From a bacterium (lineage in GTDB: Bacteria; UBA8248): a DNA stretch of 64,000 nucleotides. Below the pieces are notes generated by a model. The model was not told the DNA's origin, ran no database searches, and saw only the letters and a list, made by a program, of their open reading frames with translations. Positions 22,435 through 39,370 of this stretch are shown here, piece by piece (position 1 is the first letter of the stretch; the number at the start of each line of letters is the position of its first letter). The DNA lies in contig OY843592.1 in the NCBI GenBank assembly GCA_963692865.2, positions 608,001-672,000 of the forward strand. Direction: 5' to 3'. The position numbers were made by a program, and so were the translations under genes.

Positions 22435-22712
22435 GAATCTTGCACGGGGCGATGGGATGAACTCCGACAACGACGCGGACCGGCCTTCGCGAAGGACGCC
22501 CGGAAAGAGGAGCTTTCGCCGCCCGAGGTTTTTCGCGCCACAGGTCATTCGTTATGCGCGACAACCGTCGTATCCGCCCCGGGTTTCACGGCTTTCGCCG
22601 CATCGGGATTCGAGGTCAGTCGGGCGCTCGGTCTGATGGTGGCGATCACGATCAGTTTCGCGCTTTTGGCGGACTTCCCGCTTCCGCCGACGGCTCTCGA
22701 CCGGAGGAATTG

Positions 22713-23531
22713 ATGATGCCAGATCGCCTCACCCGCGCCACGCTATCGTTTCTCGTAATCTGCGCGTATCTCCTGATCCACCCGCCCGCGCCGCCGCGCG
22801 CCGAGGGCGCGACGCCCGAGGAAAAAGGGATACGGATCGCTCGCGAGACCCGCGAGAGAGGGAGAGGCTTCGGAAACTTCACGGCCGAGCAGAGCATGGT
22901 GCTGCGCAACAGGCACGGACAGGAGAGCCGCCGCCGGCTCCGCGTGAAGGTTCTCGAGACGGACGGCGGCGGCAACAAGAGCCTGTTCGTCTTCGACCGT
23001 CCGCGCGACGTGAAGGGCACGGCGCTGCTCGTCCACTCCCACAAGAAGAAGAACGACGACCAGTGGCTCTTCCTGCCCGCCCTCAAGCGGGTCAAGCGCA
23101 TCAGTTCGTCCAACCAGTCCGGTTCGTTCATGGGCAGCGAATTCGCCTACGAGGACATGGGCACCCAGGAGGTCGAGAAATTCACCTACCGCTACCTGCG
23201 CGACGAGCCTTGCGGCAAGCTGACGTGCACGGTCGTCGAGCGCTTCCCGACGAACAAGCGCTCGGGCTACACGCGCCAGATCGTCTGGCAGGACAAGGGC
23301 GAGCTTCGCGCCTGGAAGGTCCAGTACTACGACCGCAAGAACGCGCACTTGAAGACGCTCACCGTGGATAAATACAAACGGTACCTGGACAGGTACTGGC
23401 AGGCGGGCGAAATGAAGATGGTGAACCACCTGACGGGCAAGAGCACCGTGCTGCGCTGGAAGGACTACAAGTTCCGCACCAACCTCAAGGAGAGCGAATT
23501 CACGCGAACCGGCCTGAGACGGGTGCGCTGA
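22713..23531 (+). CDS. Outer-membrane lipoprotein-sorting (LolA-like) periplasmic carrier
   Basis: Signal peptide; P.DVKGTALL...DDQWLFLPALKRVKRISS....GSFMGSEFAYEDM signature; GGAGG RBS. Confidence 0.88.
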   Translation: MMPDRLTRATLSFLVICAYLLIHPPAPPRAEGATPEEKGIRIARETRERGRGFGNFTAEQSMVLRNRHGQESRRRLRVKVLETDGGGNKSLFVFDRPRDVKGTALLVHSHKKKNDDQWLFLPALKRVKRISSSNQSGSFMGSEFAYEDMGTQEVEKFTYRYLRDEPCGKLTCTVVERFPTNKRSGYTRQIVWQDKGELRAWKVQYYDRKNAHLKTLTVDKYKRYLDRYWQAGEMKMVNHLTGKSTVLRWKDYKFRTNLKESEFTRTGLRRVR

Positions 23532-24787
23532 TGCCGCTGCGCGCCGCCTTCCGCCGCGCGGCGCCCGCCGCCGTCTCGATATGGGCCGCCCTCCTCTTCG
23601 CGGGGGCGAGCCACGGGGCCGAAAGCATCGAGCACGAGTTCTCCGGGAGCCTGGAGGTCGAGAGCCGCTGGTATCCCCAAAAAGGCGCGCACCCGGAGCA
23701 GCGCGCGCACGCGAGCGGCTTCGCCGTCGATCCGAAACTCCATCTCAAGGGCGAGGGCGAGTGGAGCGTCACCATCGCGCCGTTCGCCCGTTACGACGGG
23801 GCGGACTCGCGCCGCACTTACGCCGACCTGCGCGAAGCCTATTTTCTGACGTACGGCGAAATCGGCGACGGTGAATGGGAACTCCGCCTGGGCGTGGACC
23901 GCGTGTTCTGGGGCGTCACCGAATCGCAGCACCTCGTCGACATCATCAACCAGACCGACCTCGTCGCCCACCCGAACAAGGAAACCAAACTGGGCCAGCC
24001 GATGGCGCACCTCACCTGGTCGGCGGAGTGGGGCATCCTGGAGTTGTTCGCCCTCACCTATCACCGCGCGCGCACATACCCGGGCCGCCACGGCCGCCTG
24101 CGCTCCGCGCTCGTCATCGACGATGAGCACGTCTCATACGAAAGCGCCGCCGGGGAGTGGCGCGTGGACCTGGCGGCCCGCTTCACCCGCAGCATGGGGC
24201 CCTTGGACCTGGGGCTCAGCGTATTCGACGGCACGAGCCGGGAGCCCTACGTCAGGCCGCATTTCGACCCGCGCGGTGGGGTGAGCCTGCGGCATCACTA
24301 CGACAAGATTCGCCAGTTCAGCGTGGACGCCCAGTACACCGTGGAGTCGTGGCTCCTCAAGCTGGAAGCCGTTCACCGCGAGGGCGCGCGCAACCTCCGG
24401 GGCGTGAAGGAGGACTTCGCCGCTTTCGTCGTCGGGGGGGAATACACCTTCAACTCCATCTGGGGCTCGGCCGCCGACCTCGGCCTGCTCGCCGAATGGA
24501 ATTACGACGAGCGGGAAGAACGCTCGAACTCCGAGTTCCAGAACGACCTCTTCTTCGCCGTTCGGATCGGGCTCAACGACGCCCAGAGCACGGAAATCAT
24601 CGCGGGCGTTCTCGCGGACTCGGACCACGCCACGCGCACCCTGAGCGTCGAACTGAGGCGGCGCCTCTCGGATCAGTGGTCCATGAAGCTCGAAGCCATC
24701 GTTCTCATGGACGTCGACCGAGAGGACATCATCTACGACACGAGGCGGGACAGCTTCGTGGCCCTGAACGTGACGTACAACTTCTAA
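23531..24787 (+). CDS. Outer-membrane beta-barrel protein of LolA-like/MMPL loci
   Basis: Signal peptide; DLREAY...LG.DRVFWGVTES..LVDIINQ; C-terminal YNF beta-signal; translationally coupled to the upstream gene. Confidence 0.8.
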   Translation: MPLRAAFRRAAPAAVSIWAALLFAGASHGAESIEHEFSGSLEVESRWYPQKGAHPEQRAHASGFAVDPKLHLKGEGEWSVTIAPFARYDGADSRRTYADLREAYFLTYGEIGDGEWELRLGVDRVFWGVTESQHLVDIINQTDLVAHPNKETKLGQPMAHLTWSAEWGILELFALTYHRARTYPGRHGRLRSALVIDDEHVSYESAAGEWRVDLAARFTRSMGPLDLGLSVFDGTSREPYVRPHFDPRGGVSLRHHYDKIRQFSVDAQYTVESWLLKLEAVHREGARNLRGVKEDFAAFVVGGEYTFNSIWGSAADLGLLAEWNYDEREERSNSEFQNDLFFAVRIGLNDAQSTEIIAGVLADSDHATRTLSVELRRRLSDQWSMKLEAIVLMDVDREDIIYDTRRDSFVALNVTYNF

Positions 24788-25115: not shown

Positions 25116-27410
25116 ATGAATTCCGCATCCCTCGAGCGATACATCGCGTTCATGCTGCGCCGCAGGTGGCTGGTTCTCGCCTCCGCCCTGGGCGTAATGC
25201 TGCTCATGGCGGCCGGTCTGCGCTTCATCAACATTTCCAACGACTGGCGCGACATGCTCGATGCGGGCAACCCGCAACTCGTCGCATTCGACGCCATGGA
25301 GGCCACCTATTCGGCGACCAACGCGGCGTTGATCGCCCTGGCGCCCAAGGGGGGGACGATATTCACCCGCGAGGCGCTCGGCGCCATCGAGGAGCTGACC
25401 GACGCCTTGTGGCGCGTGCCCAAGTCCGTCCGCGTCGACTCCCTGACCAACTACAACCACACCGAGGCGGAAGGGGACGACTTGATCGTGGAGCGCCTCG
25501 TGGACGACGCGGGGAAGCTCGGCGACGAAGACCTCGCGCGGATCAAGAAGATTGCGCTGGGCGAGAGCAGCATCAGGGGCCGTCTCGTCTCGCGCGACGG
25601 GCGCGTCGCCGGGCTGGTCGTCACTTTCGCCCTGCCCAGGCGTTCGGACGCCGCGGAGATCCAGATTCTGAACCACCTCCGCGGCCTCCTGGCGGAGGCC
25701 CGGAAGAAACACCCCGACATCGCCTACCACGTGACCGGCAACGTCTTCGTGAACCAGGTGCTGACGGCCGCGGCCCAGGACGACATGGGGATTCTCGCGC
25801 CCGCCGCGTTCCTCGTCATCGTGACCGTCGCCGCCATCCTCCTGCGCTCCCTGTTCGGAACGATGTCCCTCGTCATCGTGATCATCTTCACCGTCGTTTC
25901 GACCATGGGCTTCATCGGCTGGACCGGCCTGACGCTCAACGCCGCCAACTCCGGCGTTCCCCTCATCATCATGACGCTCGCCATCGCGCACTCGGTCCAC
26001 GTCGTCGAGGCGATCATGACCGGCATGAGGAGAGGCCTGGAGAGAGACGCCGCGATCGCCGAGTCGCTGCGCGAGAACGCCTGGCCGGTGTTCCTCACGA
26101 CGGCCACGACGATAATCGGGTTCCTCAGCATGAACGCCTCGGACTCTCCGCCGTTTCGGCTCCTCGGCAACCTGGTGGCGTTCGGCATGCTGTGCGCCTA
26201 CGTCTATTCGATGACGCTTCTGCCCGCGCTGCTGCTGGTGCTGCCGATGCGCGCGCGCCCTTCGCGCGGGGGGCATTCCAATATCTTCGACCGCCTCGGG
26301 GCCTTCGTCGTCGAGCGCCGCACGCTCCTGCTGTGGTCCGTGGCCGCCTTCGCCGTCTTCCTGGTGGCGGGCATTCCGCGCATCGAGCTGACGGACAACT
26401 GGACGCAGCATCTGGATGAGCGCTACGAGTTCCGGCGCGACACGGACTTCGTCATCGAGAATCTCTCCGGCGTGGAAACCCTGGAGTATTCCCTGGACTC
26501 CGGGCGCGAAGCCGGCATCACCGACCCCGCCTACCTGCGAAAGGCCGAAGCCTTCGCCCGGTGGTTCCGCGCCCAGCCGGAAGTGGCGCACGTCCAGACG
26601 TTTACGGACATCATGAAGCGCCTCAACAAGAACATGCACGGCGACGACCCGGCCTTCCACCGGCTGCCCGAAGACCCCAGGCTCGCCGCGCAGTACCTGC
26701 TGCTCTACGAGTTTTCGGTGCCCATGGGGATGGACCTCAACAACCGCATCAACGTCGCCAAATCCGCCACGCGCATGACCGTCACGCTCAAAAGGCTCAA
26801 GTCCGAGGAGCTGCGCGCGATCGAGGCGCGCGGGCAGGCCTGGCTCACCGCCAACGCGCCCGGCCTCGCGAAAGAGGCGTCGGGCTACAGCCTCATCTTC
26901 GCCCACCTGGCCATACGGAACACCGAGAGCATGTTGTACGGCACGCTCACGGGCATGCTCCTCATTTCGCTGATCCTGATCGGGATTTTCAAAAGCCTGC
27001 GCCTGGGCCTCATCAGCCTCGTGCCCAACCTCATCCCCTCGGCCATGGCCTTCGGCGTCTGGGGCTATCTGTACGTCGAGGTGGGGCCCGCCGGCTCTCT
27101 CGTGACCGCCATCGCCTTCGGCACCGTCGTCGACGACACGATCCACTTCATGAGCAACTACCTCAAGTCGCGCCGCGAGGGTCTTTCCGCGAGCGATGCG
27201 GTGCGCGCCACGTTCCGCGCGGTGGGCAGCGCGCTGTTCGCCACGACCATGGTCCTGGTGCTCGGCTTCCTGGTGTTCGCCACGTCGGGGTTCGCCATCA
27301 GCTGGATGCTCGGCCTCCTGTTCGCGCTCACGCTCAGCTTCGCGCTGTTCTGCGATTTGCTGCTCCTGCCGCCCCTGCTCATGGCCATTGACCGCAGGGC
27401 GTATCGGTGA
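25116..27410 (+). CDS. MMPL/RND family lipid transporter
   Basis: Two repeats of TM-periplasmic loop-5TM; LTTATTIIGFLS, SLVPNLIP and GTVVDDTIHF motifs. Confidence 0.9.
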   Translation: MNSASLERYIAFMLRRRWLVLASALGVMLLMAAGLRFINISNDWRDMLDAGNPQLVAFDAMEATYSATNAALIALAPKGGTIFTREALGAIEELTDALWRVPKSVRVDSLTNYNHTEAEGDDLIVERLVDDAGKLGDEDLARIKKIALGESSIRGRLVSRDGRVAGLVVTFALPRRSDAAEIQILNHLRGLLAEARKKHPDIAYHVTGNVFVNQVLTAAAQDDMGILAPAAFLVIVTVAAILLRSLFGTMSLVIVIIFTVVSTMGFIGWTGLTLNAANSGVPLIIMTLAIAHSVHVVEAIMTGMRRGLERDAAIAESLRENAWPVFLTTATTIIGFLSMNASDSPPFRLLGNLVAFGMLCAYVYSMTLLPALLLVLPMRARPSRGGHSNIFDRLGAFVVERRTLLLWSVAAFAVFLVAGIPRIELTDNWTQHLDERYEFRRDTDFVIENLSGVETLEYSLDSGREAGITDPAYLRKAEAFARWFRAQPEVAHVQTFTDIMKRLNKNMHGDDPAFHRLPEDPRLAAQYLLLYEFSVPMGMDLNNRINVAKSATRMTVTLKRLKSEELRAIEARGQAWLTANAPGLAKEASGYSLIFAHLAIRNTESMLYGTLTGMLLISLILIGIFKSLRLGLISLVPNLIPSAMAFGVWGYLYVEVGPAGSLVTAIAFGTVVDDTIHFMSNYLKSRREGLSASDAVRATFRAVGSALFATTMVLVLGFLVFATSGFAISWMLGLLFALTLSFALFCDLLLLPPLLMAIDRRAYR

Positions 27411-27529
27411 AGTACAGGCTCACCGACATCCTCAAAGACGCGAAATCCGGCGGCGTCGAAGCCGGTCGCTTCGGCATCTTCACTCCGATGTATTTCATCC
27501 TCGCCCGCAAGCCGGAACAGGGAGGGGCG
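27407..27529 (+). pseudogene. C-terminal remnant of a sterol methyltransferase
   Basis: VEAGRFGIFTPMYFILARKP matches the SMT C-terminal motif (VAGGKTGIFTPLYCFLARKP in 35628-36656); the rest of the enzyme is absent. Confidence 0.7.
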
Positions 27530-27599
27530 GTTGGGGAAGTCCACGGCGGTCGGGTTCGCCGGGCGACGGGGAAGAGCGGATCCTCTCGCATCAATCGGG

Positions 27600-28480
27600 C
27601 TGCGCCTGTAGGGGCCGCATGTGGAGTTGCTGAAAAAGTCCCCTGACGGGGTAAAGGCAACCCCCTTGAAGGGGAAATCCCATAAAGGCAACCCCCCCTA
27701 CCCCCCCTTGTCAGGGGGGTAAGAAAAACCAAAGCCCCCTCTACCCGGCGAGAGGTGTCGCTTTTTTATACCCCCCTGACAAGGGGCTGTTGAAAAAGTC
27801 TGGAATGCCGGTATGGGGGCGACGGGATACCACCTTGCCGGAGGTGTGTAGGGGCCGCATATTATGCGGCCCGCCGCCGGAGAAGCGAAAAAAGGCCGGG
27901 TCGCATAATATGCGACCCCTACGGGTAAAACGTGGTTGATGCGAGGGGGATAGCTTTTTCAACAGCCCTGACAAGGGGGGGGGTAGGGGGGGGTTGGTTT
28001 TCGAGGCAGGGGGAGGACGAGCGGGGCGGGGTTTTGATCGTCATTCCGGCGAAAGCCGGAATCCAGAGCCGATGTGAATTTCGAACCGCAGGACGACCAT
28101 GAAAAACAATCATGCGAAAAGACAAATTCAAAAGCAAAGTCCCTGGATTCCGGCTTTCGCCGGAATGACGGCGTGCAATCTCGATTGCAGGGGTCGTTCG
28201 AGAACGGTTCCTGTCCGCGAAAGCGGGCGGTTCGCGAACCGCCCCTACACAGGGAGCGGCAACGATGCCGGAATGACGGCGGTGATCAATTCCGATCGAG
28301 AAAAGGTTTTTCAACAACCCCGCCTTGGGCGGGATTGACCCCTTGAGGGGGAGTCGGTGGGGGGAGTTTTTATTTTAGAACCATACCCCCACGCATCAGC
28401 CTTCGCACAAGGCGCTCGGCTTCTGCTACTCCCCCTCAAAGGGGGAGTGATTTGGCCCGGCCCGCAAGGGCCGTAGCGAG
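27600..28480. repeat. Repeat mosaic R5
   Basis: GTAG-REPs, CCCCCCTACCCCCCCTTGTCAGGGGG hairpins, an inverted GTCATTCCGGCGAAAGCCGGAATCC pair, CCCCTTGAGGGGGAGT and MITE ends. Confidence 0.85.
27784..27968. mobile_element. MITE (185 bp) carrying an inverted REP doublet
   Basis: TIRs GGGCTGTTGAAAAAG / CTTTTTCAACAGCCC flanked by TGACAAG (27777-27783, 27969-27975); shares one ~50-bp end with 1440-1599. Confidence 0.78.
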
Positions 28481-28498
28481 GGCCGCGGGAAGCGCGCA

Positions 28499-29239
28499 AT
28501 GAACAAGATGACGTTCCACGCCTGCTTGATCATCGCCTGCATGTTCGCGTCGGCGGGGACCGCCCGAGCGCAGTCGCTGGAAGAGGCGCGCGCCGCATAC
28601 GCCGAGGGCCGCTTCACCGAGGCCGCGGAGCTCGCCCGGTCGCTCGGCGCCTCCGAAGGCCATGCGCTGGCCGCCGATTCCCTGGCGATTCACGGCTACT
28701 ACGTCGCGCCCGCGGGCGAAAAGGCGGACTTGTTCCGGCGGGCCGAGAAACTCGCGCGGGAGGCCGTCAGGCTCGACGCGGCCAACCCCGAGGCCCATCT
28801 CCAGTTGGCCCACGCCATGGGCCGCCAGGCGCAGGCGGCCGGGCCGCTCAAGGCGCTCAAGGAGGGCTACGCCGCCAAAGTGCGCGACGCGATAGAGGAG
28901 GCGCTTCGGCTGGACCCGAAAATGGCGGCCGCGCACGTCAGCCTGGCCGCCTGGCACGCGGGCGCCGTCGGCGCGGGCGGATTCTTCGCCGCCCTGCTCT
29001 ACGGGGCGAGCGAAGAGAAGGCGCTCGCCCATTTCGAGCGGGCGCTCGAACTGACGCCGCGGGACAAGACGGCGCTGTTCGAGTACGCCACCGGCCTCCT
29101 GAGCCTGGACGCCGGGGAGAACCGCGCGAGGGCGCGCGATCTGCTGGAGCGCGCGATTGGGATACCGCCGAAAGACGCCTTCGAGCGGCTCGTTCACCAA
29201 AGGGCGGTCGCGCGGCTGGCGGCTCTCGGCGATGGATAG
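28499..29239 (+). CDS. Secreted TPR-like helical protein
   Basis: Signal peptide ending ARA-Q; repeats AVRLDAANPEAH, ALRLDPKMAAAH and ALELTPRD. Confidence 0.8.
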   Translation: MNKMTFHACLIIACMFASAGTARAQSLEEARAAYAEGRFTEAAELARSLGASEGHALAADSLAIHGYYVAPAGEKADLFRRAEKLAREAVRLDAANPEAHLQLAHAMGRQAQAAGPLKALKEGYAAKVRDAIEEALRLDPKMAAAHVSLAAWHAGAVGAGGFFAALLYGASEEKALAHFERALELTPRDKTALFEYATGLLSLDAGENRARARDLLERAIGIPPKDAFERLVHQRAVARLAALGDG

Positions 29240-29297
29240 GGGGTCGGCGAGAAAGGCCTTGCGGATCGGTCGAGATTCTATGGTAGGGGCCGCATAT

Positions 29298-30501
29298 CAT
29301 GCGGCCCGCCTTGTGGAGGCGAAAATCAGGGTCGCATGGTATGCGACCCCTACACTTGCGCTGCAAACAGGGTCGCTTATGGACATGGACAATCGGGTGC
29401 CATCTCGACCTCGCCCCGAGTAGTCCTGAGCCCGTCGAAGGAGGTACCGAAGGGCTGTCTCTCCTCCCCTCCGCAAACGCGAGATGCCCCGTAGGGGCCG
29501 CATATCATGCGGCCCGCTTCGCCGCCCCCCGATCATGGGCCGCATTATATGTCGGACATATATGTCTGACCTACGGAAAGCAATCCTCACTCCCTCCTTG
29601 AGGGGATTGTTGAAAAGTCCCGTCTTCCCCCCCCCCACAAACCGCCAACGCCTCTTTCCTCACCCTGAGTAGCCGCCGAAGGTCAAACGCGAGAGGCGCT
29701 GTAGGGGTCGCATATCATGCGACCCGTATTGTGAAGGCGAAAAGGCAGGGCCGCATGATATGTCAGACATATATGTCTGACCTACGGCGGGATTACCGAC
29801 TGACCTGCAAGGACTTTTTCAACAACCCCGACAAGGGGGGGGTAGGGGGGGTTGCCTTTATCCCGCCAGGAAAGTTTTCAACAACCCCACAACCGCGGCA
29901 CCATGCGGCCCGCCCTGTGGAGGCGAAAATCAGGGTCGCATGGTATGCGACCCCTACACTTGCGCTGCAAACAGGGTCGCTTATGGACATGGACAATCGG
30001 GTGCCATCTCGACCTCGCCCCGAGTAGTCCTGAGCCCGTCGAAGGAGGTACCGAAGGGCTGTCTCTCCTCCCCTCCGCAAACGCGAGATGCCCCGTAGGG
30101 GCCGCATATCATGCGGCCCGCTTCGCCGTCCCCCGATCATGGGCCGCATGATATGTCGGACATATATGTCTGACCTACGGAAAGCAATCCTCACTCCCTC
30201 CTTGAGGGGATTGTTGAAAAGTCCCGTCTTCCCCCCCCCCACAAACCGCCAACGCCTCTTTCCTCACCCTGAGTAGCCGCCGAAGGTCAAACGCGAGAGG
30301 CGCTGTAGGGGTCGCATATCATGCGACCCGTATTGTGAAGGCGAAAAGGCAGGGCCGCATGATATGTCAGACATATATGTCTGACCTACGGCGGGATTAC
30401 CGACTGACCTGCAAGGACTTTTTCAACAACCCCGACAAGGGGAGGGTAGGGGGGGTTGCCTTTATCCCGCCAGGAAAGTTTTCAACAACCCCACAACCGC
30501 G
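29298..30501. repeat. Tandem duplication (period 604 bp) of a REP/MITE mosaic
   Basis: 29298-29897 and 29902-30501 are nearly identical, with about four substitutions seen by eye. Confidence 0.92.
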
Positions 30502-30549
30502 TCCCCACGCGGCCTTCGGCGGGCCGGAGCGCCCGGTACGGAACGAAAT

Positions 30550-30642
30550 ACTTGAAATCAATCGTTTTGCTGGGCCATAATGGCCCCGGTTGGCTTCCTG
30601 CGTGGCGGCCCGAGCCTCATGGACTTCCACTGCACAAGCCGC
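30550..30642 (+). promoter_or_regulatory. Shared promoter/leader motif, copy B (upstream of P450)
   Basis: TTGAAA-N18-CATAAT then TGGCTT...CCACTGCACAAGCCGC, homologous to 24932-25026. Confidence 0.65.
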
Positions 30643-30687
30643 GTGGAGCAAAATGCTCCCCCACCGATTCTTGAGGCGCATCGTCCG

Positions 30688-32724
30688 ATGAGACTGATAG
30701 AAGAGATTGTGCTTCTCCTGCTGAACGAAGAGAGCGGATATCTCGAACAGGTGGCGGGCTGGAATCTCTCGTGCGTTCTGGCAGGCGCCGTGCTGGCGGA
30801 CCTCGACCTCGAATCCCGTATCGACACCGGCCAGGAGTTGCTTTCGGTGGAGGATGCGTCCCCTTTGGGAGACGACCTCCTCGACCCCGTGCTGGAGACC
30901 ATCGCCCGCGACCCCGAACCGCGCACCGTCGGTTACTGGATCGAGAAGATCGGCGGCGAGTCGAACGAGCTCCTGGATCACGTTTTCGAGCGGTTGGTGA
31001 GAAATAAAATCCTGGACCATGCGATCGGCGGCTTCTGGTCTCTCTCGCGAAACGTGACGAACGGGGACTCCACCACGTCCAGCAGCCGGTTGCGGGCGAC
31101 GGCGCGCCGGCGAATCGTCGATACGATCCTGGGGGACGAAATACCCGACCCCCGCGACGCCATCATCATCGGCCTCGCCAATTCCTGCGGCGCGTTCCGG
31201 TTTCTCTTGCAGCCGGAAGACTACGAGGCTTCACGCGAGCGCATCGAACTGCTGAGCATACTGGACCGCATCAGCCGCTCCGTCGCCGCCGCCGTCGTAG
31301 AGACGTCGATCCATCGCTCCATTGCGATAGCGACAAAACCCGTTCCCGACATCAGCCTGCTGAAATTGCTCCGCAAAGACGCGCTTTGGGAAGGAAACGT
31401 GGCCAGGCTGCTGGCCGACCTTTACCGCGACTACGGCCCGGTCTTCGCGCTCAAGGCTCCCTTCTCCAAAAAGAGGGTTTTCATCCTCGCGGGAAACGAG
31501 GCCAACATCTGGTTCAACCGGCAAAGCCGGATGCACATGCGCTCGAAAGAAACCATGGAGGGCATGGAGCACGTGCTCGGCGCATCGAGAAGCCTGCCGG
31601 GCATGGACGGGGCCGAACACTTCCGCATGCGCAAGGCGTTCCAGATGGCCTCCTCCCGGAACCGCCTGAACGGACGGCTCGGAGATCTGTTCGAAGAGAT
31701 ACGGCTGTCGCTTGATTCGTGGAGCGCGGGCGACGTGCTCGTCGCCAAGGACGCAAGCCGGACTCTTATGTCCGGCCAGGTGTCCCGGCTCCTGTTCAGC
31801 ATGGATTTTTCAGAATACGTAGACGACATCCACAAATACAAGAACCGCATGCTGATCACCTACGCGCAGAAGATTTTGCCGAAGTCCTTCATGCGAACGC
31901 CGCGCATGAAAGCCATCCGGCGGCGCATCGACCACGTCTATTCCATGATCAGGAATTCGCACACCCCGGCGCAGCGCGAAAACCAGCCCCGCGACCTGAT
32001 CGACGACCTGCTCAGCCTGCATGCCAGCGACCCGCAGTACTTTCCGGATACCGATACCAGGTTCATGATGATCATACCCTTCGTCGCGGCCATGTATATG
32101 GGCACCGCCGTCGGGTTCGGGCTCTTTCTGATGGCCTCCCATCCGGACATCTACCAGCGCGTGCGCAGGGAAGCCGAGGCGCTGTTCGCGAACGGAGACC
32201 CCCGGCCGGAGGACTTGACGCCGGAGGCCATGGACACCGCCCACCGGCTGATTCTCGAAACCCTCCGGCTCTACCCCAGCGTCCCCCTGCAAATGAGAAC
32301 CGTCATGAACAGCTGCATCGTGGAGGGCTACGAACTGCCCCTCGATGCCCGCGTCGTGCTGGCGTCCACCGCCGTTCATTACATGGAGGAGAACTATCCC
32401 GATCCGCGGACGTTCGACATCGACCGGTATCTTCCCGGGCGAGAGGAGCACAAGAAACACGGGGCTTTCGGGACATGGGGTTTCGGCACCCACACCTGCC
32501 TCGGCCCGAGAGTGGCGGAATATCAGATGACGATCAACCTTTTGATGATCGCCTACTATTTCGAGCTGGAAGCGATGCCCTCCTGCTACCCGGTGAAAGT
32601 CAATCCGTTCCCGACCTGCACCCCGCGCAAGAGCCTCAAGCTACGAATCAAGTCGAAGCGGCCGCTCTTCCCGAGCGATCGGGCGGTCGCCTCCGACGAT
32701 CGGGAGGTCGCCCTGCATTCCTGA
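30688..32724 (+). CDS. GPP34 (GOLPH3/Vps74-like)-cytochrome P450 fusion
   Basis: N-terminal L.EEIVLLLL.EE.G...LAGAVLADL.LE.RI...GDDLLD.VL..I (GPP34-like); C-terminal P450 with ETLR and GFGTHTCLG heme motif. Confidence 0.85.
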   Translation: MRLIEEIVLLLLNEESGYLEQVAGWNLSCVLAGAVLADLDLESRIDTGQELLSVEDASPLGDDLLDPVLETIARDPEPRTVGYWIEKIGGESNELLDHVFERLVRNKILDHAIGGFWSLSRNVTNGDSTTSSSRLRATARRRIVDTILGDEIPDPRDAIIIGLANSCGAFRFLLQPEDYEASRERIELLSILDRISRSVAAAVVETSIHRSIAIATKPVPDISLLKLLRKDALWEGNVARLLADLYRDYGPVFALKAPFSKKRVFILAGNEANIWFNRQSRMHMRSKETMEGMEHVLGASRSLPGMDGAEHFRMRKAFQMASSRNRLNGRLGDLFEEIRLSLDSWSAGDVLVAKDASRTLMSGQVSRLLFSMDFSEYVDDIHKYKNRMLITYAQKILPKSFMRTPRMKAIRRRIDHVYSMIRNSHTPAQRENQPRDLIDDLLSLHASDPQYFPDTDTRFMMIIPFVAAMYMGTAVGFGLFLMASHPDIYQRVRREAEALFANGDPRPEDLTPEAMDTAHRLILETLRLYPSVPLQMRTVMNSCIVEGYELPLDARVVLASTAVHYMEENYPDPRTFDIDRYLPGREEHKKHGAFGTWGFGTHTCLGPRVAEYQMTINLLMIAYYFELEAMPSCYPVKVNPFPTCTPRKSLKLRIKSKRPLFPSDRAVASDDREVALHS

Positions 32725-32951
32725 CTCGCGGGGCCCGCGCGGCGGCCGAAACACCGCGCAAACCGGCGGATTCGCCGTTCTTTACCGCATCAAAATTTCT
32801 TGACAACGCAAGGAGCGTTGGCGAGTATGTCAGGATAAGGCTTATCGAGATGTCGTAACCCGTATTCCGATTCGGGGAAGAGACTCGAATGAATTGCTTC
32901 GTCGAACGATTATCAGTCCGGGCCGCATCGACCCGAAAACAAGGAGCCGTC

Positions 32952-33878
32952 ATGAGATCGATTTCACACCGGAAAAACCCTCCTATTCAAACGATCTTTG
33001 CGGCCGCCGCCGCCGCGTTTCTTCTCATAGCGTTCGCGCCCGACGCGCGCGCCGCGGATTCGGGCGCGAAAGCCCAGGACCCGAAATGGTATTTCAGCCT
33101 GAGCGTGCCGGTCATGTTCATCGACGACTCGGACAGCGTCGAGAAGGGCGCCGTGCCGAGTCCCGCTGGCAAAACTGACTACACGGCGAAAGCCCTCACG
33201 GAATACGCTACGGGGTACAGGGTGAGCGGCGCGCTGGGCCGTGAATTCGGCAACGGCCTGCGCGTCGACGGCGAGGTGTTCCTCGCCAGCGCCAAGGTCG
33301 ACAAGCTGATCTACAAGGGACGCACGACGACCTTCCCTACTCAACAGGGACCAATGACTATAGATGTACCGGGCGAGAGTTCCATCCCCGTGTCCGGCTC
33401 GGCAAGCCAGATGGGCGCCATGGTGAACGTCTGGTACGATTTCAATACCGGCTCCAAATGGACGCCATACGTCGGCTTCGGCCTCGGCTTCCTCCGGGTC
33501 GATTGGGGCGACGTGAAGTATGACCGCAACGAGGTCGCGCAAGGAGCTGCCGACCAGATTGCGCGCTTACAATGCAAAGCCCTTCCCCCTGGCGTCCAGC
33601 AGGATCAGTGTCTACAAGGGGTTCAAGCAGGGGCTGCCAAACTGCCCCCGGGGACCGTGCCCGAACTCTCCGACACGGATACGGTGCTCGCCTATCAACT
33701 CGGCCTGGGGCTGGCCTACGAGTATTCCGACGCCATTACCTTTCAGGTGGGCTACCGCCTGTCGAGGTCCGGCGATCTGGAGTTCAGCGGCAAGAACACC
33801 ATGACCATGGCGACGGCCACGGCGACCACGGACATGCAGGTTCATCTCTTCGAGTTGGGCATACGCTATCGATTCTAG
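32952..33878 (+). CDS. Opa/OmpA-like 8-stranded outer-membrane beta-barrel
   Basis: Signal peptide; G.RVD.E, MVNVWYDF...WTPYVGFGLG, AYQLGLG..Y and terminal GIRYRF; AAGGAG RBS. Confidence 0.85.
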   Translation: MRSISHRKNPPIQTIFAAAAAAFLLIAFAPDARAADSGAKAQDPKWYFSLSVPVMFIDDSDSVEKGAVPSPAGKTDYTAKALTEYATGYRVSGALGREFGNGLRVDGEVFLASAKVDKLIYKGRTTTFPTQQGPMTIDVPGESSIPVSGSASQMGAMVNVWYDFNTGSKWTPYVGFGLGFLRVDWGDVKYDRNEVAQGAADQIARLQCKALPPGVQQDQCLQGVQAGAAKLPPGTVPELSDTDTVLAYQLGLGLAYEYSDAITFQVGYRLSRSGDLEFSGKNTMTMATATATTDMQVHLFELGIRYRF

Positions 33879-34010
33879 GCGTCGCGTGAACCCCGAACGC
33901 CCCGGCGGGAGGAAAGGTGGCATGGCGCGCGCTTCGATCGGTCGTCGGCCGGGCGTGAGGCCGGCCGAACTCGCAGGCGAAGCCGCAACCTTCGAACCAG
34001 GGGATGGCGG

Positions 34011-35048
34011 ATGTCGATGAAAGCCGGCCGAATCGAGCGCGACGACGCATCCTCGCTTTATCCGTTTCCGGAAGGCTGGTACTTCGTCGCCGGCCGAAAG
34101 ACGATAGAGAAGAAGAAACTGATCCAGAGAACCTGGATGGGCGAGCGAATCGTCGTCTGGTGCGACGATGAGGGCCGCATCTGCGTGGCGGAGGACTTGT
34201 GTCCGCATCTGGGTTCGGAGCTCGGCCCCGAAGTCGGCGGCATGGTGCGGGGCGGCTGCCTCGTCTGCCCCTTCCACGGGTTCGAGTTCGACGTTTCCGG
34301 ACAATGCGTCAAGACGCCCTACGCGCCGGCGCCCAGGACCGCCAGGCTTAAAACTTTCGAGACGCGCGAAATCCTGGGCATCGTCTTCGCCTGGTGGGGG
34401 GTCGATGGACGCCCGCCGCAATGGCGCCTGCCGGAGGAGCCCGCCGGAGACGACTGGAGCGGGCTGGAGACCTGGAGCGTCCGGTTCACGGGGCATCCCC
34501 AGGAGACGACCGAGAACTCGGTGGACGACGGACACCTGCGCTACGTGCACGGCTTCGGCAGCGTGAACCGGGTCGGAACGATAGAGGTGGACGGCGCCTA
34601 CCTCAGGAGCTGTTTCGACTTCAGGAAAACCCAGGCCGTCGCCGGGATCAACATCTACACGTACGACGTTTCCGCCATCACCCACGTGCACGGGCTGGGC
34701 TATTCGTTCGTCGAGGTCCACGAGGACGGCATCGGCATGGATACCCGCCTGTGGGTGCTCGCGACGCCCATCGACGCCGAAACCGTCGAAATGACGCTGT
34801 TCAGCCAGGTGAAGCGAATACGCAGACCGAAGCGGGCGATCATCGGAATGCGCTTCCTGCCGGCGGGTCTTCGCACCAGAATCATGAACAAAATCCTCAT
34901 CACGGCCCAGAAGCGCGACGTTTTGCTGGACGTCGTCATATGGGACAGGAAACATTACGTGCCCCGCCCCCGCCTGTGCGGCTCGGACGGGGAGATCGGA
35001 GCCTTCCGGCGTTATTGCGAGCAGTTCTACCCGGAGCGGGGGTGTTGA
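34011..35048 (+). CDS. Rieske non-heme iron oxygenase, KshA/Neverland (sterol-acting) type
   Basis: CPHLG...CPFHG, ENSVDDGHLRYVH and C-terminal DVVIWDRKHY..P.L...DG.I..FRRYCEQFY. Confidence 0.85.
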   Translation: MSMKAGRIERDDASSLYPFPEGWYFVAGRKTIEKKKLIQRTWMGERIVVWCDDEGRICVAEDLCPHLGSELGPEVGGMVRGGCLVCPFHGFEFDVSGQCVKTPYAPAPRTARLKTFETREILGIVFAWWGVDGRPPQWRLPEEPAGDDWSGLETWSVRFTGHPQETTENSVDDGHLRYVHGFGSVNRVGTIEVDGAYLRSCFDFRKTQAVAGINIYTYDVSAITHVHGLGYSFVEVHEDGIGMDTRLWVLATPIDAETVEMTLFSQVKRIRRPKRAIIGMRFLPAGLRTRIMNKILITAQKRDVLLDVVIWDRKHYVPRPRLCGSDGEIGAFRRYCEQFYPERGC

Positions 35049-35575
35049 AAAAGGCCTGCTTCGAAACAGGGCGGACACTCAGGTCCCCGGACAGGCTCCT
35101 GCGCCTGTCCGGCTACGCGAGACGCAATGGTTCTGTAGGGGAGGACCCGTGTGTCCTCCCCTGAGCGCCGTTCTGGTCGTGAGCCTGATGTAGGGGTCGC
35201 ATATCATGCGACCCGCATATCGAACGGGGAGGGCCGCATGATATGTCGGACATATATGTCCGACCTACGGACCAAACCCGACCGAAGGAGGGTTGTTGAA
35301 AAAGCGTCTATGAACGAGGGTTCGGCGCGACCGACGGGAAGAAAGAGAATCACTCCCCCCTTGAGGGGGAGTCGAAAAAACCCGGGCTTGGGAGCGGGCG
35401 GTATGGAGTCTCACGCAGCGGTGGAGGTGAAGCCGGCCCGGCGCGAGCAGGCGTGATTGTTAGCGTAGGGGCCGCATATCATGCGGCCCATGGTCGGCAG
35501 GCGTAAAAGGCAGGGCCGCATGATATGCGGCCCCTACAGACCAAACCCGACCGAAGGGGGGTTGTAAAAAAGGCC
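35038..35575. repeat. Repeat mosaic R7
   Basis: Three same-orientation MITE left ends (35038, 35290, 35558), GTAG-REP doublets, ACTCCCCCCTTGAGGGGGAGTC and a repeated GACCAAACCCGACCGAAGG block. Confidence 0.82.
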
Positions 35576-35627
35576 GCCGGGAGGCGGGTTTCGCCGTAGA
35601 GAGACAGGAAGAGGGACACGCGACGCC

Positions 35628-36656
35628 ATGGAAATCGGCAAACTATCGAACGAGTTGAAGGACGCGTACGGGGGAGAGGACGTCGCCCGCCGCGTGCAGG
35701 ACTTCGAGGACTGGATCGAGCGCGCGGAGGCCGACGGCGCGGGCGGGTACGACCACACCCAGACGGTGAAGGACTACTACGACCTCTGCAGCGGGTTCAT
35801 GGTGTGGGGCTGGGGCGAATCCCTGCACTTCGCGCCCCTCTCGCCCGAGGAGAGCCTGGAGGAATCCAAGGTCCGGCATCAGCGGCTGATGATCTCCAAG
35901 CTGGAGCTGCAGCAGGGCATGGCGGTGGTCGACGTCGGTTGCGGAATCGGCGGCCCGATGCGCCGCGTCGTCCGTGAGGCGGGCGTCCGGGTCGTCGGGA
36001 TCAACATCAACAAAATCCAGCTGGAAAAGGCGAAGAGGCTGAACGCCGAGGCGGGGCTCGACCACATGATCGATTACGAGGCGTGCAGCTTCATGGACAT
36101 GAGCGCCGTCGAAGACGAGACGTTCGACCGGGGCTACGCCATCGAGTCGACGTGCCATGCGCCGGACAAGCGGCGCGCGTTCGAGGAGATATTCCGCGTG
36201 CTGAAGCCCGGCGCCCTGTTCTGGGGGCAGGAGATGTGCCTGACGGAGAAGTTCGACCCCGGCGACGACCGGCACCGGGCCCTCAAGCGCGACCTCATGC
36301 TCGGCATCGCGCTCAAGGAGGTCGCGACGTTCGCGGAAGTGAACCGCGCGCTCGAAGCGGCGGGTTTCGAGGTCGTGGAGGGGATGGACCGGGAAGTCCG
36401 GGAGGGGCCATCCACGCCGTGGTACCAACCCATGGAGAGCCGGCACGGGACGCTGGGCAACGCCCTGCGCAGGCTTCCGCAGGGCCGCAGGGCGGTCCTC
36501 GCGGGATCGAAGCTGGCCGAAGTCGTCCGGCTGTTCCCGAAGGGGTCCGCGGAAGTCGTCCGCCTCCTGGACCGGACCGCGGACGCCTACGTCGCGGGCG
36601 GCAAGACGGGCATCTTCACGCCGCTGTACTGCTTCCTGGCCCGCAAACCCCGTTAG
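35628..36656 (+). CDS. C24-sterol methyltransferase (SMT/ERG6) homologue
   Basis: YYDL...WGWGESLHFAP, VDVGCGIGGP, YAIESTCHAP, EIFRVLKPG and C-terminal GIFTPLY...RKP. Confidence 0.9.
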   Translation: MEIGKLSNELKDAYGGEDVARRVQDFEDWIERAEADGAGGYDHTQTVKDYYDLCSGFMVWGWGESLHFAPLSPEESLEESKVRHQRLMISKLELQQGMAVVDVGCGIGGPMRRVVREAGVRVVGININKIQLEKAKRLNAEAGLDHMIDYEACSFMDMSAVEDETFDRGYAIESTCHAPDKRRAFEEIFRVLKPGALFWGQEMCLTEKFDPGDDRHRALKRDLMLGIALKEVATFAEVNRALEAAGFEVVEGMDREVREGPSTPWYQPMESRHGTLGNALRRLPQGRRAVLAGSKLAEVVRLFPKGSAEVVRLLDRTADAYVAGGKTGIFTPLYCFLARKPR

Positions 36657-36750
36657 GCGCAAGCGGCCGGCGGGCGCGCCGGAGTTGCGCGGGCTTTTGG
36701 AGTTGACTCCCCTCTTGACTGTCGATTGCACACGCTGAATCACGAAACCA

Positions 36751-37792
36751 GGGCTTTTTCAACAAGCCCATATGCGACCCCCGCAAACCGCCAACGCCTC
36801 TTTCCTCACCCTGAGTAGCCGCCGAGCCGCGTATCGAAGGTCAATCGCGACCAATGCGGGAGCGATTGCCGACCAAAAAGGGGAGCGCTCCCCTCGATAG
36901 ACTCGGGCAAGCCCTTCGATACAAACGCTCCTTCCTCGGGGCTGTTGAAAAACCTGTCCCTCTCGGATCAACCACGTTTTATCCGTAGGGGCCGTTCGCG
37001 AACGGCCCTCCCCGGAGAAGAAACGGGCGCTTCACGAAGCGCCCCTACGGTCGTCTTTCAAGAGGGTATGTAGGGGCCGCATATCATGCGGCCCGCCGCC
37101 GGAAAGGCGAAAAGGCCGGGCCGCATGATATGCGGCCCCTACAATCGAAACAGCAAAATGACGCCCGGAGCCGAGCGCGCGGCTTCGGCCTGCTACCGAA
37201 GACGGAGCCGGTTCGTCATCCGGACGCTCCCGCCGCCGTCATGCGCCGGAGCGACGAACCACGAGCTTCCCTTCCGCCGGACAGCGCAACCCCTCTCTCC
37301 CAAGGGCTGTTGAAAACTTTCCTGACGGGGTACAGGCAACTCTCCCTTGTCAGGGGTCAATTTCGAGCGATGAGCGAGAAATTGCGCGCCGATGCGTTTC
37401 TCATCAATGGCTTATGCAAACGCTCGCTCCTCACTCGCGTTTGACCCCTGACGAGGGGGGGGTAGGGAGGTTGCCTTTACAGGGTTGTTGAAAAAGTCCT
37501 CCAATCGAGAGTGTTCACCGTCATTCCGGCGAAAGCCGGAATCCATTTGCTTTGCCTTTGCTTTTTTGTTTTCTGATTGGTTCCCGTCAATGACGGAGAG
37601 ATGAAAAGCCGGAGTATTGTCATTCCGCTTGAAAATGGATTCCGGCTTTCGCCGGAATGACGAATAAAACCGAACCGGCCCGAAAGGACAGGCCGCGACC
37701 TCGGACAGGCTAAAGGGCCTGTCCGCTGCGCGCGCCCTCCCCGGTTATTTGCATTCGCCAAATCTCGAAATCAGAGGTTTTTCAACAACCCC
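36751..37792. repeat. Repeat mosaic R8, including MITE-like unit 37482-37791
   Basis: MITE ends, GTAG-REPs, CCTGAGTAG...TATCGAAGG and an inverted GTCATTCCGGCGAAAGCCGGAATCC pair; the last repeat cluster in the window. Confidence 0.85.
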
Positions 37793-38036
37793 GAAAGCGC
37801 CGCCACCGCCTCATCCCGGGCAGGCGCGCGCGCCGCATCGGGGGATGCGCGGCGGGCGGTGTCGAACCCCGCCCGGAGCCGGGCGCGCTTTTCGCCCATC
37901 CGCGCCGCGCCGGGAGCGGGCCGTCTCGGGCGGGTTCCGGGGGGCGTTTCTCCGGAAGGGGCGCGCTCCCGGAGAGAGCGCGTGAGGAGCGCAGGGATTC
38001 AGGATAATGCAAATAATCATATTTTCGACAAAATTG

Positions 38037-38085
38037 GATAAATTCACGATGTTTTCCGATAAATTAACGGGGTTATTCGATAAAT
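38037..38085 (+). repeat. Three phased GATAAAT direct repeats (21-bp period)
   Basis: GATAAAT at 38037, 38058 and 38079 in an AT-rich patch. Confidence 0.6.
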
Positions 38086-38347
38086 AAAACGAGCCGTTTT
38101 CCCTCGGGAAAAGACGCCGAAACAGCGCGGCGCAGGGAGTATTCTGCCACGGCCCGAGCGCCGCGCGATGACGGCAAATGCGGGGAATTGCGGGGCGCCG
38201 CGCGCCGAAAGCGCCGGGGAGGCCATTGCAACCGTTTGATAAAAATTGTGTTATGACGAAGACGCCGAAAGACGCCGCGAAAGATACCCACGGGCCTCGT
38301 TTTGTGGTTTTATGGGGCGTCGCATTGGCGACATCGGGGAGATATAT

Positions 38348-38743
38348 ATGGAAAAGAAGGTCATCCATACGGAGAAGGCCGCATCGGGCAAGGTGCCGCT
38401 CTCCCAGGCCATCCGGGCGGGAGAGTGGCTCCACTGCTCGGGGCAGTTGCCACTGGACCCCGCGACGGGAGAGCTGGTTCCGGGCGGCGTGGCCGAACAG
38501 ACCCGCCGGGTCATCGAGAACTTGAAGGCGGTGTGCGAGGCGGGCGGAACGTCGCTCGAAAACGCCGTAAAAGTAACCATTTTCATGGAAGATCTGGCGG
38601 ATCTGGGGGAAATGAACGCCGTGTTCGAGGCGTATTTCGGAACGGAAGACCCCCCGGCGCGAACGACTTTCCAGGCGGCGAAAATCATCGCGGGCGCGAA
38701 ACTCGAAATCGAACTGCTGGCGTTCATCCCCCAGCAAGAATAG
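38348..38743 (+). CDS. RidA/YjgF family enamine deaminase
   Basis: SQAI....SGQLPLDP, VKVTIF, PARTT and EIE motifs. Confidence 0.9.
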   Translation: MEKKVIHTEKAASGKVPLSQAIRAGEWLHCSGQLPLDPATGELVPGGVAEQTRRVIENLKAVCEAGGTSLENAVKVTIFMEDLADLGEMNAVFEAYFGTEDPPARTTFQAAKIIAGAKLEIELLAFIPQQE

Positions 38744-38752
38744 GAGAACCCT

Positions 38753-39370
38753 TTGGCTACGAGAGCACCTCAAGTCGGGATACTGATGGGAAGCGCGTCG
38801 GACAAACCGGCGATGGAAGAAGCCGCGAAGGCGCTCGACGCCTTCCACATTCCCTCGGAGATGAGGATCTTATCGGCCCACCGCACGCCCGACGCCGTGC
38901 ACGAATACGTCAAAACGGCGCCGGAGCGCGGAATCCGCGTCCTGATCGCCGGCGCGGGCATGTCGGCGCACCTGGCGGGCGTCGTCGGCGCCGCGACGGA
39001 TCTGCCCGTGATAGGCGTTCCGCTCGACAGCTCCTCGCTCGGCGGCCTCGATTCGCTCCTCTCGACGGTGCAGATGCCCCCCGGCATCCCCGTGGCGACG
39101 ATGGGAATCGGCGGTCCCGGCGCCAGGAACGCGGCCCTTCACGCCACCCGGATACTCGCCTTGACCGACCCGAAACTGGCGAAGGAATACCGGCGCTTCG
39201 CGCAACAGCAGACCGAGAAGGTTCTGGCCGCCGACGCCGCGCTCCAGCAGGAAATCGCCCCGCCGCCCGCCCAGGCGCAAAAAGACAACTCGAAACAACC
39301 CAAAGACGACGCGAGAAAAAAACCCAGGCCCAAACGAAGCCGCGCCAAAAGAACGTACCGGAAAAAATAG
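38753..39370 (+). CDS. purE: N5-CAIR mutase
   Basis: MGSASD, SAHRTP, AGAGMSAHL and VQMPPGIPVAT; basic C-terminal extension. Confidence 0.93.
   Translation: MATRAPQVGILMGSASDKPAMEEAAKALDAFHIPSEMRILSAHRTPDAVHEYVKTAPERGIRVLIAGAGMSAHLAGVVGAATDLPVIGVPLDSSSLGGLDSLLSTVQMPPGIPVATMGIGGPGARNAALHATRILALTDPKLAKEYRRFAQQQTEKVLAADAALQQEIAPPPAQAQKDNSKQPKDDARKKPRPKRSRAKRTYRKK

Follow-up and report, generated by a model that had tools for sequence, protein, structure and literature searches.

What might a GOLPH3-like domain be doing at the front of a bacterial cytochrome P450? The question is raised by a gene at 30688..32724 (+ strand) of a 64,000-nucleotide stretch of DNA, referred to here as the window, from a bacterium of the GTDB lineage UBA8248 (assembly GCA_963692865.2, contig OY843592.1, positions 608,001 to 672,000). 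An earlier note on this DNA had read the gene as about 210 GPP34-like residues continuing in frame into a full P450, and had proposed that the extra domain replaces the transmembrane anchor of eukaryotic sterol P450s and would dock the enzyme on membranes or present its substrate. Our analysis confirmed the fusion at 30688-32724. From the genes that accompany it, we lean, with modest confidence, toward the view that the protein is the cytoplasmic P450 of a sterol-tailoring and transport module, tethered through its GPP34 domain and likely acting on an imported sterol.

A GPP34 domain joined in frame to a complete P450

The enclosing open reading frame (ORF) runs from 30580 to 32724 (+). We place the probable start at the ATG at 30688, because its MRL column provides the first residues of 22 of the 31 family members in our reference alignment (alignment A1) and because the 36 residues upstream are common to none of them (0/31); the codons 5' of this ATG also overlap a repeat copy. 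The predicted product has 678 amino acids. Its first part is a GPP34/GOLPH3-like domain (30694..31302, residues 3-205), as the earlier note had proposed: the match to PF05719 takes in positions 1-200 of the 201 in the profile and scores 105.6 bits (E = 4.6e-30; cut-off 29.1), and a phmmer search with the N-terminal 211 residues alone recovered human GOLPH3 (3kn1, E = 5.1e-7) and yeast Vps74 (2zii, E = 2.7e-6). There follows a short linker (31303..31329), defined from alignment A1 and from an AlphaFold2 model built on the family alignment (mean predicted local distance difference test score (pLDDT) 81.5, predicted template-modeling score (pTM) 0.73). About 12 linker residues precede a conserved KP(V/I)P motif that leads into the P450 fold; P218 is kept in at least 90% of alignment A1 and P220 is invariant, and residues 209-223 are coil in the model.

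The remainder is a complete P450 (31330..32664, residues ~215-659), again in line with the original reading, and was identified by Pfam, VIA-align and Foldseek. PF00067 was matched by residues 296-632 at 134.7 bits (E = 5.4e-39). The heme-ligand cysteine C604 (codon 32497..32499, + strand) lies in a loop, WGFGTHTCLG, that satisfies the pattern FxxGxHxCxG, and the ExxR motif is formed by E524 and R527; the cysteine and the ExxR residues are invariant in the 31 aligned sequences (31/31) and present in 100% of 76 fused sequences. Besides GPP34 and p450, no fused flavin or iron-sulfur domain was found by Pfam at E values up to 0.1. The protein thus departs, as the earlier note had implied, from the usual bacterial P450 fusions with redox partners.

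When the modeled P450 part (residues 214-664) was compared with solved structures using VIA-align, the best scores were effectively tied between CYP184A1 (Z = 32.8, 436 residues aligned, root-mean-square deviation (rmsd) 3.2), Methylococcus CYP51 (Z = 31.9) and human CYP51 (Z = 31.6), and Foldseek gave a target-normalized TM-score of 0.81 to both CYP184A1 and CYP51. The best sequence relatives among solved structures were CYP51s (Methylococcus CYP51, E = 1.2e-32), although identity of the P450 part to CYP51 structures is 17-20%. The canonical acid-alcohol pair of the P450 I-helix is found in the motif (A/G)Gx(D/E)T. In the protein studied here, HMMER and MAFFT alignments both put Y470 (codon 32095..32097, + strand) at the place of the acid, which is His in CYP51, and a Met beside it at the place of the threonine; in the HMMER alignment, FAGHHTS of CYP51 aligns with IYLGSAL of the family and with AAMYMGT in the window. 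Y470 is invariant among the 31 sequences of alignment A1, the same column is Y in 48% and T in 43% of the 76 fused sequences, and it is T in 87% of 73 unfused relatives.

The earlier note had allowed that the fusion might be a sequencing read-through absent from homologues. It is not an artefact, because 118 of the 120 best homologues, proteins of 650-704 amino acids with identities between 98% and 44%, have both Pfam domains, because the architecture recurs at 79 loci, and because an independent assembly bridges the domain junction. The 120 were taken from 1043 proteins with E values up to 0.001 among 8000 scored candidates, and the two without both domains are shorter proteins of 518 and 552 amino acids. 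The 79 loci come from a scan of one genome per species, in which 563 pattern matches yielded 401 relatives; all 79 loci kept (79/79) align with the window protein over almost its whole length, and at least 10 phylum-level groups appear in their record titles. The bridging assembly is a DNA contig of a separate study (run X5, 1150 nt, 30 differences) that spans window positions 30479-31623. A run labeled as a sponge metagenome (X6) had contigs over 27/30 bins of the stretch (30 of 36 contigs being at least 90% alike), and sponge-type names occur among the record titles of relatives. In two metatranscriptome runs, short contigs of 501, 174 and 151 nt, with 6, 2 and 0 differences, respectively, lie within the P450 part, and none of them bridges the junction; they are a weak hint of transcription, since DNA may occur in such libraries.

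A search of the whole library with the P450 part gave 18159 matches at E values up to 0.001. Among the best 150 of these representatives (clustered at 50% identity), 49 carried an N-terminal GPP34 domain and 69 were unfused proteins of 400-560 amino acids, the nearest named unfused relative being "Cytochrome P450 120" of Herpetosiphon (33% identity). A quick maximum-likelihood tree built from 119 P450 domains placed 65 unfused proteins in one clade (SH-aLRT 93), and the rest comprised 46 fused and 8 scattered unfused rows. This topology is compatible with a single old fusion and later losses or truncated gene calls. The window protein and its homologue in genome G012, labeled Nitrospirales, fell together in an 11-row clade with full support. 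A second GPP34-P450 subfamily is represented by a gene in genome G027 (L090:4718-6754, - strand; P450 198 bits, GPP34 129 bits), whose product is 34% identical to the window protein. A candidate selenocysteine in paralogues from the same genus, suggested by alignments annotated as having "1 TGA inside", was rejected: the TGA is a normal stop, and the alignment had run into the longer tail of the window protein.

The architecture itself is already known, and the gene is a new member of the group named GPP34_L, which accounted for 656 of 663 long GPP34 proteins in a published survey (Microbiome 2025;13:4, PMC11706023) and was reported there only from sponge symbionts, of many phyla. GPP34_L proteins share with the window protein the order of an N-terminal GPP34 domain followed by a P450, and the homologues found here come from metagenome-assembled genomes (MAGs) with the same kinds of labels. 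The two accounts differ in function, in that the paper proposes a secreted effector that binds phosphatidylinositol 4-phosphate (PI4P), whereas here the fusion is tied to a sterol methyltransferase (SMT), a KshA-like oxygenase, transporters of sterol type and gene clusters for sterol synthesis. The words "sterol" and "signal peptide" occur 0 times in the main text of PMC11706023, so the sterol context was not considered there.

Sterol genes that travel with the fusion

Two of the genes downstream of the fusion in the window recur beside its homologues. One encodes a Rieske oxygenase with Rieske and KshA_C domains by Pfam (34011..35048, + strand), which among solved structures is closest to the steroid 9-alpha-hydroxylase KshA (2zyl, E = 1.3e-22). 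The other encodes a homologue of sterol C-24 methyltransferase, with methyltransferase and Sterol_MT_C domains by Pfam (35628..36656, + strand). To score linkage across the 79 loci we used tblastn with the neighbors as queries, requiring at least 50% query cover and accepting the best family per region, over up to 10 kb on each side (several loci being shorter). The Rieske/KshA_C gene was present at 61/79 loci (median gap to the fusion 536 bp), the SMT at 43/79 (median gap 177 bp, making it the closest neighbor) and an FAD amine-oxidase-like gene at 37/79 (median gap 1312 bp); the best solved relatives of the latter are LkcE and the putative amine oxidase 2b9w. Either the Rieske gene or the SMT was found at 71/79 loci and both at 33/79. 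A looser first tblastn pass had given 63 loci for Rieske and 44 for SMT. In the commonest order, the FAD oxidase is followed by the Rieske gene (divergent from the fusion), the fusion, and the SMT (convergent). Less frequent neighbors were ERG24 (7/79), SdmA-like (5/79) and SdmB-like (3/79) genes, and epoxidase-cyclase fusions (2/79).

By de novo ORF clustering with Pfam run on representatives, the MMPL family was present in 39 of 80 sources, versus 8/79 loci by strict tblastn, and AcrB, HlyD and OEP components of efflux pumps lay near the fusion in 26, 17 and 13 of the 80 sources, respectively. Counts from the clustering of crude ORFs were used only where confirmed by tblastn or Pfam.

In some carrier genomes the fusion lies within a complete sterol synthesis cluster. 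In G012, the gene row, read with Pfam and NCBIfam, begins with an MFS transporter, an MMPL transporter, a homologue of the tetratricopeptide-repeat (TPR) protein of the window (69% identical, with no Pfam family at the threshold used) together with an unknown protein, and a squalene epoxidase-cyclase fusion of 1269 amino acids. It continues with ERG24, SdmA-like and SdmB-like genes (NCBIfam scores of 407 and 293 bits, respectively), an SMT, the FAD oxidase, an outer-membrane protein (OMP), the Rieske/KshA_C gene, a second SMT and the GPP34-P450; a further P450 match between the cyclase and ERG24 is a CYP51-like gene. Genome G021, labeled Paracoccaceae, and genome G002 showed a similar arrangement. 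The sterol connection implied in the earlier note is therefore strongly backed by gene context, i.e., by the Rieske gene at 61/79 loci, the SMT at 43/79 and these full sterol clusters.

Among 46 chromosome-level carrier genomes, 12 had a cyclase-like domain in a long frame of 1143-1287 amino acids and 34 had no long form; three of the 12 long frames were confirmed by Pfam as epoxidase-cyclase fusions. High-scoring hopene-cyclase-like genes, judged by score only, were present in 15/46. In 8 of the 12 long-form genomes, a GPP34-P450, or a P450 in a frame of 680-700 amino acids, lay within ~20 kb of the cyclase, with G011 and G040 among the 8 being assigned on frame length only. Apart from the fusion, the cyclase-bearing genomes have another full-length P450 (176-268 bits to PF00067) directly next to the cyclase. 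Since a separate P450 stands beside every cyclase, the fusion would be an extra enzyme, not the 14-demethylase.

Squalene epoxidase and oxidosqualene cyclase were joined in one protein of 1100-1270 amino acids at L086:11522-15331, L088:16293-19847 and L091:16684-20000, in carriers labeled Nitrospirales, Paracoccaceae and Rariloculaceae. Squalene epoxidase-cyclase fusions are mentioned in the methods of a study of SMT clusters in sponge symbionts (Brown et al., 2023, PMC10070321), and clusters of ERG24, CYP51 and cyclase have been reported from Ircinia symbionts (Kelly et al., 2022, PMC9531527). The clusters in those two papers consist of an ERG24-CYP51-cyclase core with SdmB-/SdmA-like genes and an SMT, transferred over ~10 phyla, and the same genes adjoin the fusion in G012 and G021 and at loci L016, L046, L079 and L083. 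The published accounts differ from ours in that GPP34, the fusion and the KshA-like Rieske gene are unmentioned in the main text and three supplements of PMC10070321 and in the text of PMC9531527, where "P450" occurs once. No sterol link of the GPP34-P450 was found in the searchable literature, which covers neither subscription journals nor PDF supplements.

Compared with these published clusters, the window's genome (4.15 Mb in 8 contigs, 97.4% complete, 6.7% contamination) holds the tailoring and transport part only, without cyclase, CYP51 or SdmA/SdmB. The squalene-hopene/oxidosqualene cyclase domain (PF13243) is absent from it, tblastn with epoxidase-cyclase (SQMO-OSC), SdmA-like, SdmB-like and CYP51-like queries gave no match above 60 bits, and its one P450 is the fusion itself. 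With cyclase, CYP51-like, SdmA/SdmB-like and other P450 genes all missing from this genome, the substrate is most likely an external sterol. The genome does have three MMPL paralogues and an FAD oxidase (G000:C1:415580-416941) that is 83% identical to that of G012 and lies ~190 kb from the window.

Co-occurrence was also examined among 22 other genomes of the genus. A full-length fusion was present in 12 of them, ten with an orthologue at 72-84% identity; the other two, G062 and G068, had only paralogues at 37-44% identity (the match in G068 starting at residue 92), and G060 and G066 carried such a 37-44% paralogue as a second copy. The Rieske/KshA-like gene was present in exactly the same 12/22 genomes and in 0 of the other 10, a clean co-variation, although kin are not independent. 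An SMT was found in 10/22. No full-length fusion was detected in 18 genomes searched outside the genus.

Candidate roles of the fusion protein

On the reading that we favor, the fusion would be a cytoplasmic heme-thiolate P450 working within a sterol-tailoring and transport module that has spread horizontally and whose other recurrent members would be the KshA-like Rieske oxygenase, the SMT, the FAD amine-oxidase-like enzyme and sterol-sensing MMPL/RND transporters. Its substrate would be a sterol imported from outside, probably from a sponge host, and the P450 would oxidize either the nucleus or the side chain. The GPP34 domain would take the place of the membrane anchor of eukaryotic sterol P450s and may tether the enzyme to the inner side of the membrane or to a partner membrane protein by means of a conserved aromatic hairpin and an acidic surface, not through PI4P.

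Eukaryotic microsomal sterol P450s have an N-terminal transmembrane anchor. As an analogy only, the window protein resembles them in having an N-terminal non-catalytic module, a short proline-containing hinge and a P450 fold, although its module is a soluble helical domain of 200 residues and not a transmembrane helix. The anchor proposal of the earlier note is therefore plausible in its topology, given the N-terminal position and the ~12-residue linker, but docking on PI4P membranes would fit poorly with an incomplete pocket and an acidic domain. The likeness to GOLPH3 and Vps74 (3kn1, 2zii) extends over a full-length homologous domain with a projecting beta3/beta4 hairpin, modeled here as strands 109-112 and 116-119 with tip residues 112-115 at pLDDT below 50. 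The tip sequence GGFW is strongly conserved, with G114, G115 and F116 in 30/31 sequences and W117 in 31/31. GOLPH3 is reported to need the hairpin in order to bind lipids, with possible insertion of the hairpin into the membrane, and its PI4P pocket is lined by W81, R90, R171 and R174 (PMC2806290). When the GOLPH3 alignment was read against the 31-sequence family alignment, the W81 equivalent was W25, which is invariant, and the R171 equivalent was R102, kept in at least 90% of the sequences. By contrast with GOLPH3, the R90 equivalent is A32, with Ala in at least 90%, and the R174 equivalent, although it is R105 in the window, is outside the positions conserved in at least 90%; the bacterial domain also differs in being strongly acidic, cytoplasmic and fused to an enzyme. 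Its net charge is -16 in the window (median -17, range -21 to -10 in the 31 sequences), and that of the P450 part is +9 (median +12). Classical PI4P binding by the domain is thus unlikely on the strength of its sequence. The charge pattern fits docking on the basic P450 part, or binding to basic segments of a membrane protein, and GOLPH3 has been described as an adaptor for the cytosolic tails of Golgi residents (10.1101/2025.06.26.661719). It is because of the N-terminal position, the short linker, the conserved GGFW tip and the reported role of the GOLPH3 hairpin that we assign a probable tethering role to GPP34.

Several observations weigh against this picture as a whole. The acid-threonine pair of the I-helix is absent from the window P450 in two independent alignments, so that ordinary oxygen activation is not certain. 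Every argument for a sterol substrate comes from neighboring genes, and none of the linked set was found at 5/79 loci. The 12 best tblastn matches to the SMT are 75-89% identical in MAGs labeled as several phyla, which points to gene transfer, and hence the loci are not independent samples. No linked ferredoxin or reductase emerged, in that the 8 largest clusters among 2747 small ORFs near the fusions were low-complexity shadow frames, which is not proof of absence, and the only FNR-like gene of the window's genome lies 2.5 Mb away. Between the window and G012 (L086/L087), identity is 79% for the SMT, 83% for the FAD oxidase, 73% for the Rieske protein, 73% for the MMPL protein and 69% for the TPR protein, but only 48% for the OMP and 44% for the GPP34-P450. 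Either the fusion evolves much faster or it may have been swapped between subfamilies, and functional orthology across the family is accordingly not assured. The fusion of the second subfamily, at L090, sits between two sulfotransferases, with CysN/C-CysD-type PAPS genes and a fatty-acyl-reductase-like domain, i.e., in a sulfation cluster. As for the tether, only the W81 and R171 equivalents of the PI4P pocket are conserved, which weakens the case for docking on a lipid headgroup, and a net charge of -16 makes anionic lipid headgroups poor candidates for binding.

How do other explanations fare against the same evidence? The published proposal is that GPP34 proteins are secreted, bind host PI4P on phagosomes and block phagosome maturation (PMC11706023), with the P450 as an accessory. 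The conserved equivalents of the pocket residues W81 and R171 are in its favor. Some secretion-system effectors need no classical signal peptide. The model also gains from the reported restriction of the family to sponge symbionts (PMC11706023) and from the near-identical DNA over 27/30 bins in the sponge-metagenome-labeled run X6. However, the protein has no N-terminal extension or signal-like segment, helix 1 of the GPP34 domain starting the protein in 22/31 sequences; the place of R90 is Ala, that of R174 is not conserved in at least 90%, and the charge of -16 is unfavorable for an anionic lipid. A heme enzyme that depends on an electron donor would be an odd secreted effector, and the tight linkage to cytoplasmic enzymes (the SMT, which depends on S-adenosylmethionine, and the Rieske protein) and to sterol synthesis genes also counts against it. 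We give this model little credence. Still harder to sustain, and in our judgment scarcely tenable, is the idea that the fusion is the organism's sterol 14-alpha-demethylase, i.e., a divergent CYP51 with an added domain. CYP51s are indeed its best sequence relatives and near-best structural relatives among solved structures, including the Methylococcus capsulatus CYP51-ferredoxin (6mcw, 7snm; 431 residues aligned, rmsd 3.2), with which it shares a sterol context, and the fusion is the sole P450 of its own genome. Yet that genome, lacking a cyclase, would have no 14-methyl sterol of its own to demethylate, and the cyclase genomes carry their separate full-length P450 beside the cyclase as well as the fusion. 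Moreover, the His-Thr signature of the CYP51 I-helix is replaced by Tyr-Met, identity to CYP51 structures reaches only 17-20%, and the extra domain is N-terminal and bears no redox cofactor.

Two further alternatives concern the chemistry. The module might degrade or detoxify host steroids, the P450 hydroxylating them and the KshA-like enzyme attacking the ring before efflux, so that no tailored sterol would be built. A catabolic 3-ketosteroid 9-alpha-hydroxylase is, after all, the best solved relative of the Rieske neighbor, the fusion repeatedly has AcrB-type pumps and their HlyD and OEP partners nearby (26, 17 and 13 of 80 sources), and the window's genome cannot make sterols. We nevertheless consider degradation unlikely, because the closest neighbor, at a median gap of 177 bp, is the biosynthetic SMT, several genomes have the module within clusters for de novo sterol synthesis, and no beta-oxidation, KstD or Hsa-type genes were found among the recurrent neighbors or in the window. 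It is also conceivable, but appears quite improbable, that the substrate belongs to a different class of isoprenoid lipids, for instance the hopanoids or other triterpenoids, or the carotenoids or retinoids. Consistent with this are the high-scoring squalene-hopene-cyclase-like genes in 15/46 carrier genomes, a weak resemblance (70 bits) of the MMPL gene to the hopanoid transporter HpnN, and the annotation of the nearest named unfused relative as "Cytochrome P450 120" (33% identity), CYP120A1 binding retinoic acid according to the title of 2ve3. On the other hand, cyclases of both kinds are missing from the window's genome, the linked methyltransferase bears a sterol-specific C-terminal domain, and the module clusters with epoxidase-cyclase fusions, ERG24 and SdmA/SdmB.

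If the sterol-tailoring reading is correct, the consequences extend beyond this gene. The fusion has been proposed as a hallmark "symbiosis factor" of sponge bacteria, and its gene context offers a different, testable function, i.e., sterol chemistry, tying together GPP34_L, the steroid gene clusters of sponge bacteria and bacterial sterol methyltransferases. A bolder version, which we put forward tentatively and rate as rather unlikely, is that cyclase-less symbionts re-tailor host sterols for methylation by the SMT and so add to the sponge sterols, with GPP34 as a prokaryotic adaptor. Preparing the sterol for side-chain methylation would then fall to the P450 fusion together with the KshA-like oxygenase and the FAD enzyme. 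Re-tailoring of host sterols by the module would bear on which organisms make the unusual sponge sterols that are used as the oldest animal biomarkers. GPP34 would place a lipid enzyme at the membrane or at a transporter, hinting that tethering, and not PI4P sensing, may be the older role of the GOLPH3 family, and the fusion would provide a first functional handle on bacterial GPP34 domains.

Other features of the window and its genome

The fusion belongs to a row of + strand genes between 22.5 and 36.7 kb, in the order LolA-like, DUF1302-like, MMPL/RND, TPR, fusion, OMP, Rieske/KshA_C and SMT; the remaining genes of the window are housekeeping. The LolA-like (DUF1329-related) and DUF1302-like envelope proteins (22554..24787, + strand; Pfam) lie upstream of the transporter and recur at 5/79 and 3/79 loci, respectively. 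The MMPL/RND transporter (25116..27410, + strand) matches the Pfam families MMPL, Sterol-sensing and Patched. The TPR protein (28499..29239, + strand; Pfam TPR) travels with the MMPL gene, its 69% homologue being beside the MMPL gene of G012. An outer-membrane beta-barrel protein (32889..33878, + strand; Pfam OMP_b-brl) follows the fusion, with a 48% homologue in the same position in the Nitrospirales MAG, and occurs at 2/79 loci. The Rieske neighbor was also considered as a C-4 demethylase of SdmA type, an assignment that was rejected on an NCBIfam score of 37 bits, confined to the Rieske part, versus 407 bits for the SdmA-like gene of G012.

Just past the stop codon of the MMPL gene lie two apparent gene remnants. 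One (27392..27514, + strand) corresponds to the C-terminal 38 residues of a second sterol methyltransferase (PF08498, 38.3 bits in an 84-amino-acid frame; tblastn 49% over 41 amino acids, E = 2e-6), and the other (27433-27699, - strand) is a possible fragment of a Rieske/KshA-like gene (30% identity over 97 amino acids, E = 4e-4). They suggest a decayed second copy of the module. The intergenic regions 27410-28500 and 29240-30580 are dense in short palindromic repeats resembling repetitive extragenic palindromes (REP) or miniature inverted-repeat transposable elements (MITE), e.g., 7-8 copies of a GTAGGGGCCGCATATCATGCGGCCCG-type hairpin, and a 604-bp tandem duplication lies directly upstream of the fusion (29298-29597 versus 29902-30201, 99% identical over 300 nt). 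Two ORFs inside these repeats, 29297-29638 (-) and 29793-30242 (-), were discarded as spurious, having no Pfam match and a GC content at third codon positions (GC3) of 0.63-0.64. No Rfam match was found in window positions 27000-39000.

The window's genome also has two standalone GPP34 genes, L001 (G000:C1:2140498-2141094) and L002 (G000:C1:2450161-2450736), scoring 165 and 124 bits against Pfam. One has an EamA transporter and a cupin protein as neighbors, and the other a PHO4 phosphate transporter. The standalone GPP34 of this genome likewise lacks the R97/R90 equivalent. Of the 22 other genomes of the genus, 14 encode a standalone GPP34 protein of 229 amino acids and 21 have a standalone GPP34-only match of some length, irrespective of whether the fusion is also there. 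Finally, GC3 changes along the window, perhaps through an island, a different origin or a join in an assembly whose contamination is 6.7%: among genes of at least 190 amino acids, most have values of 0.71-0.92 up to ~40 kb, and beyond that point the values are 0.50-0.65.

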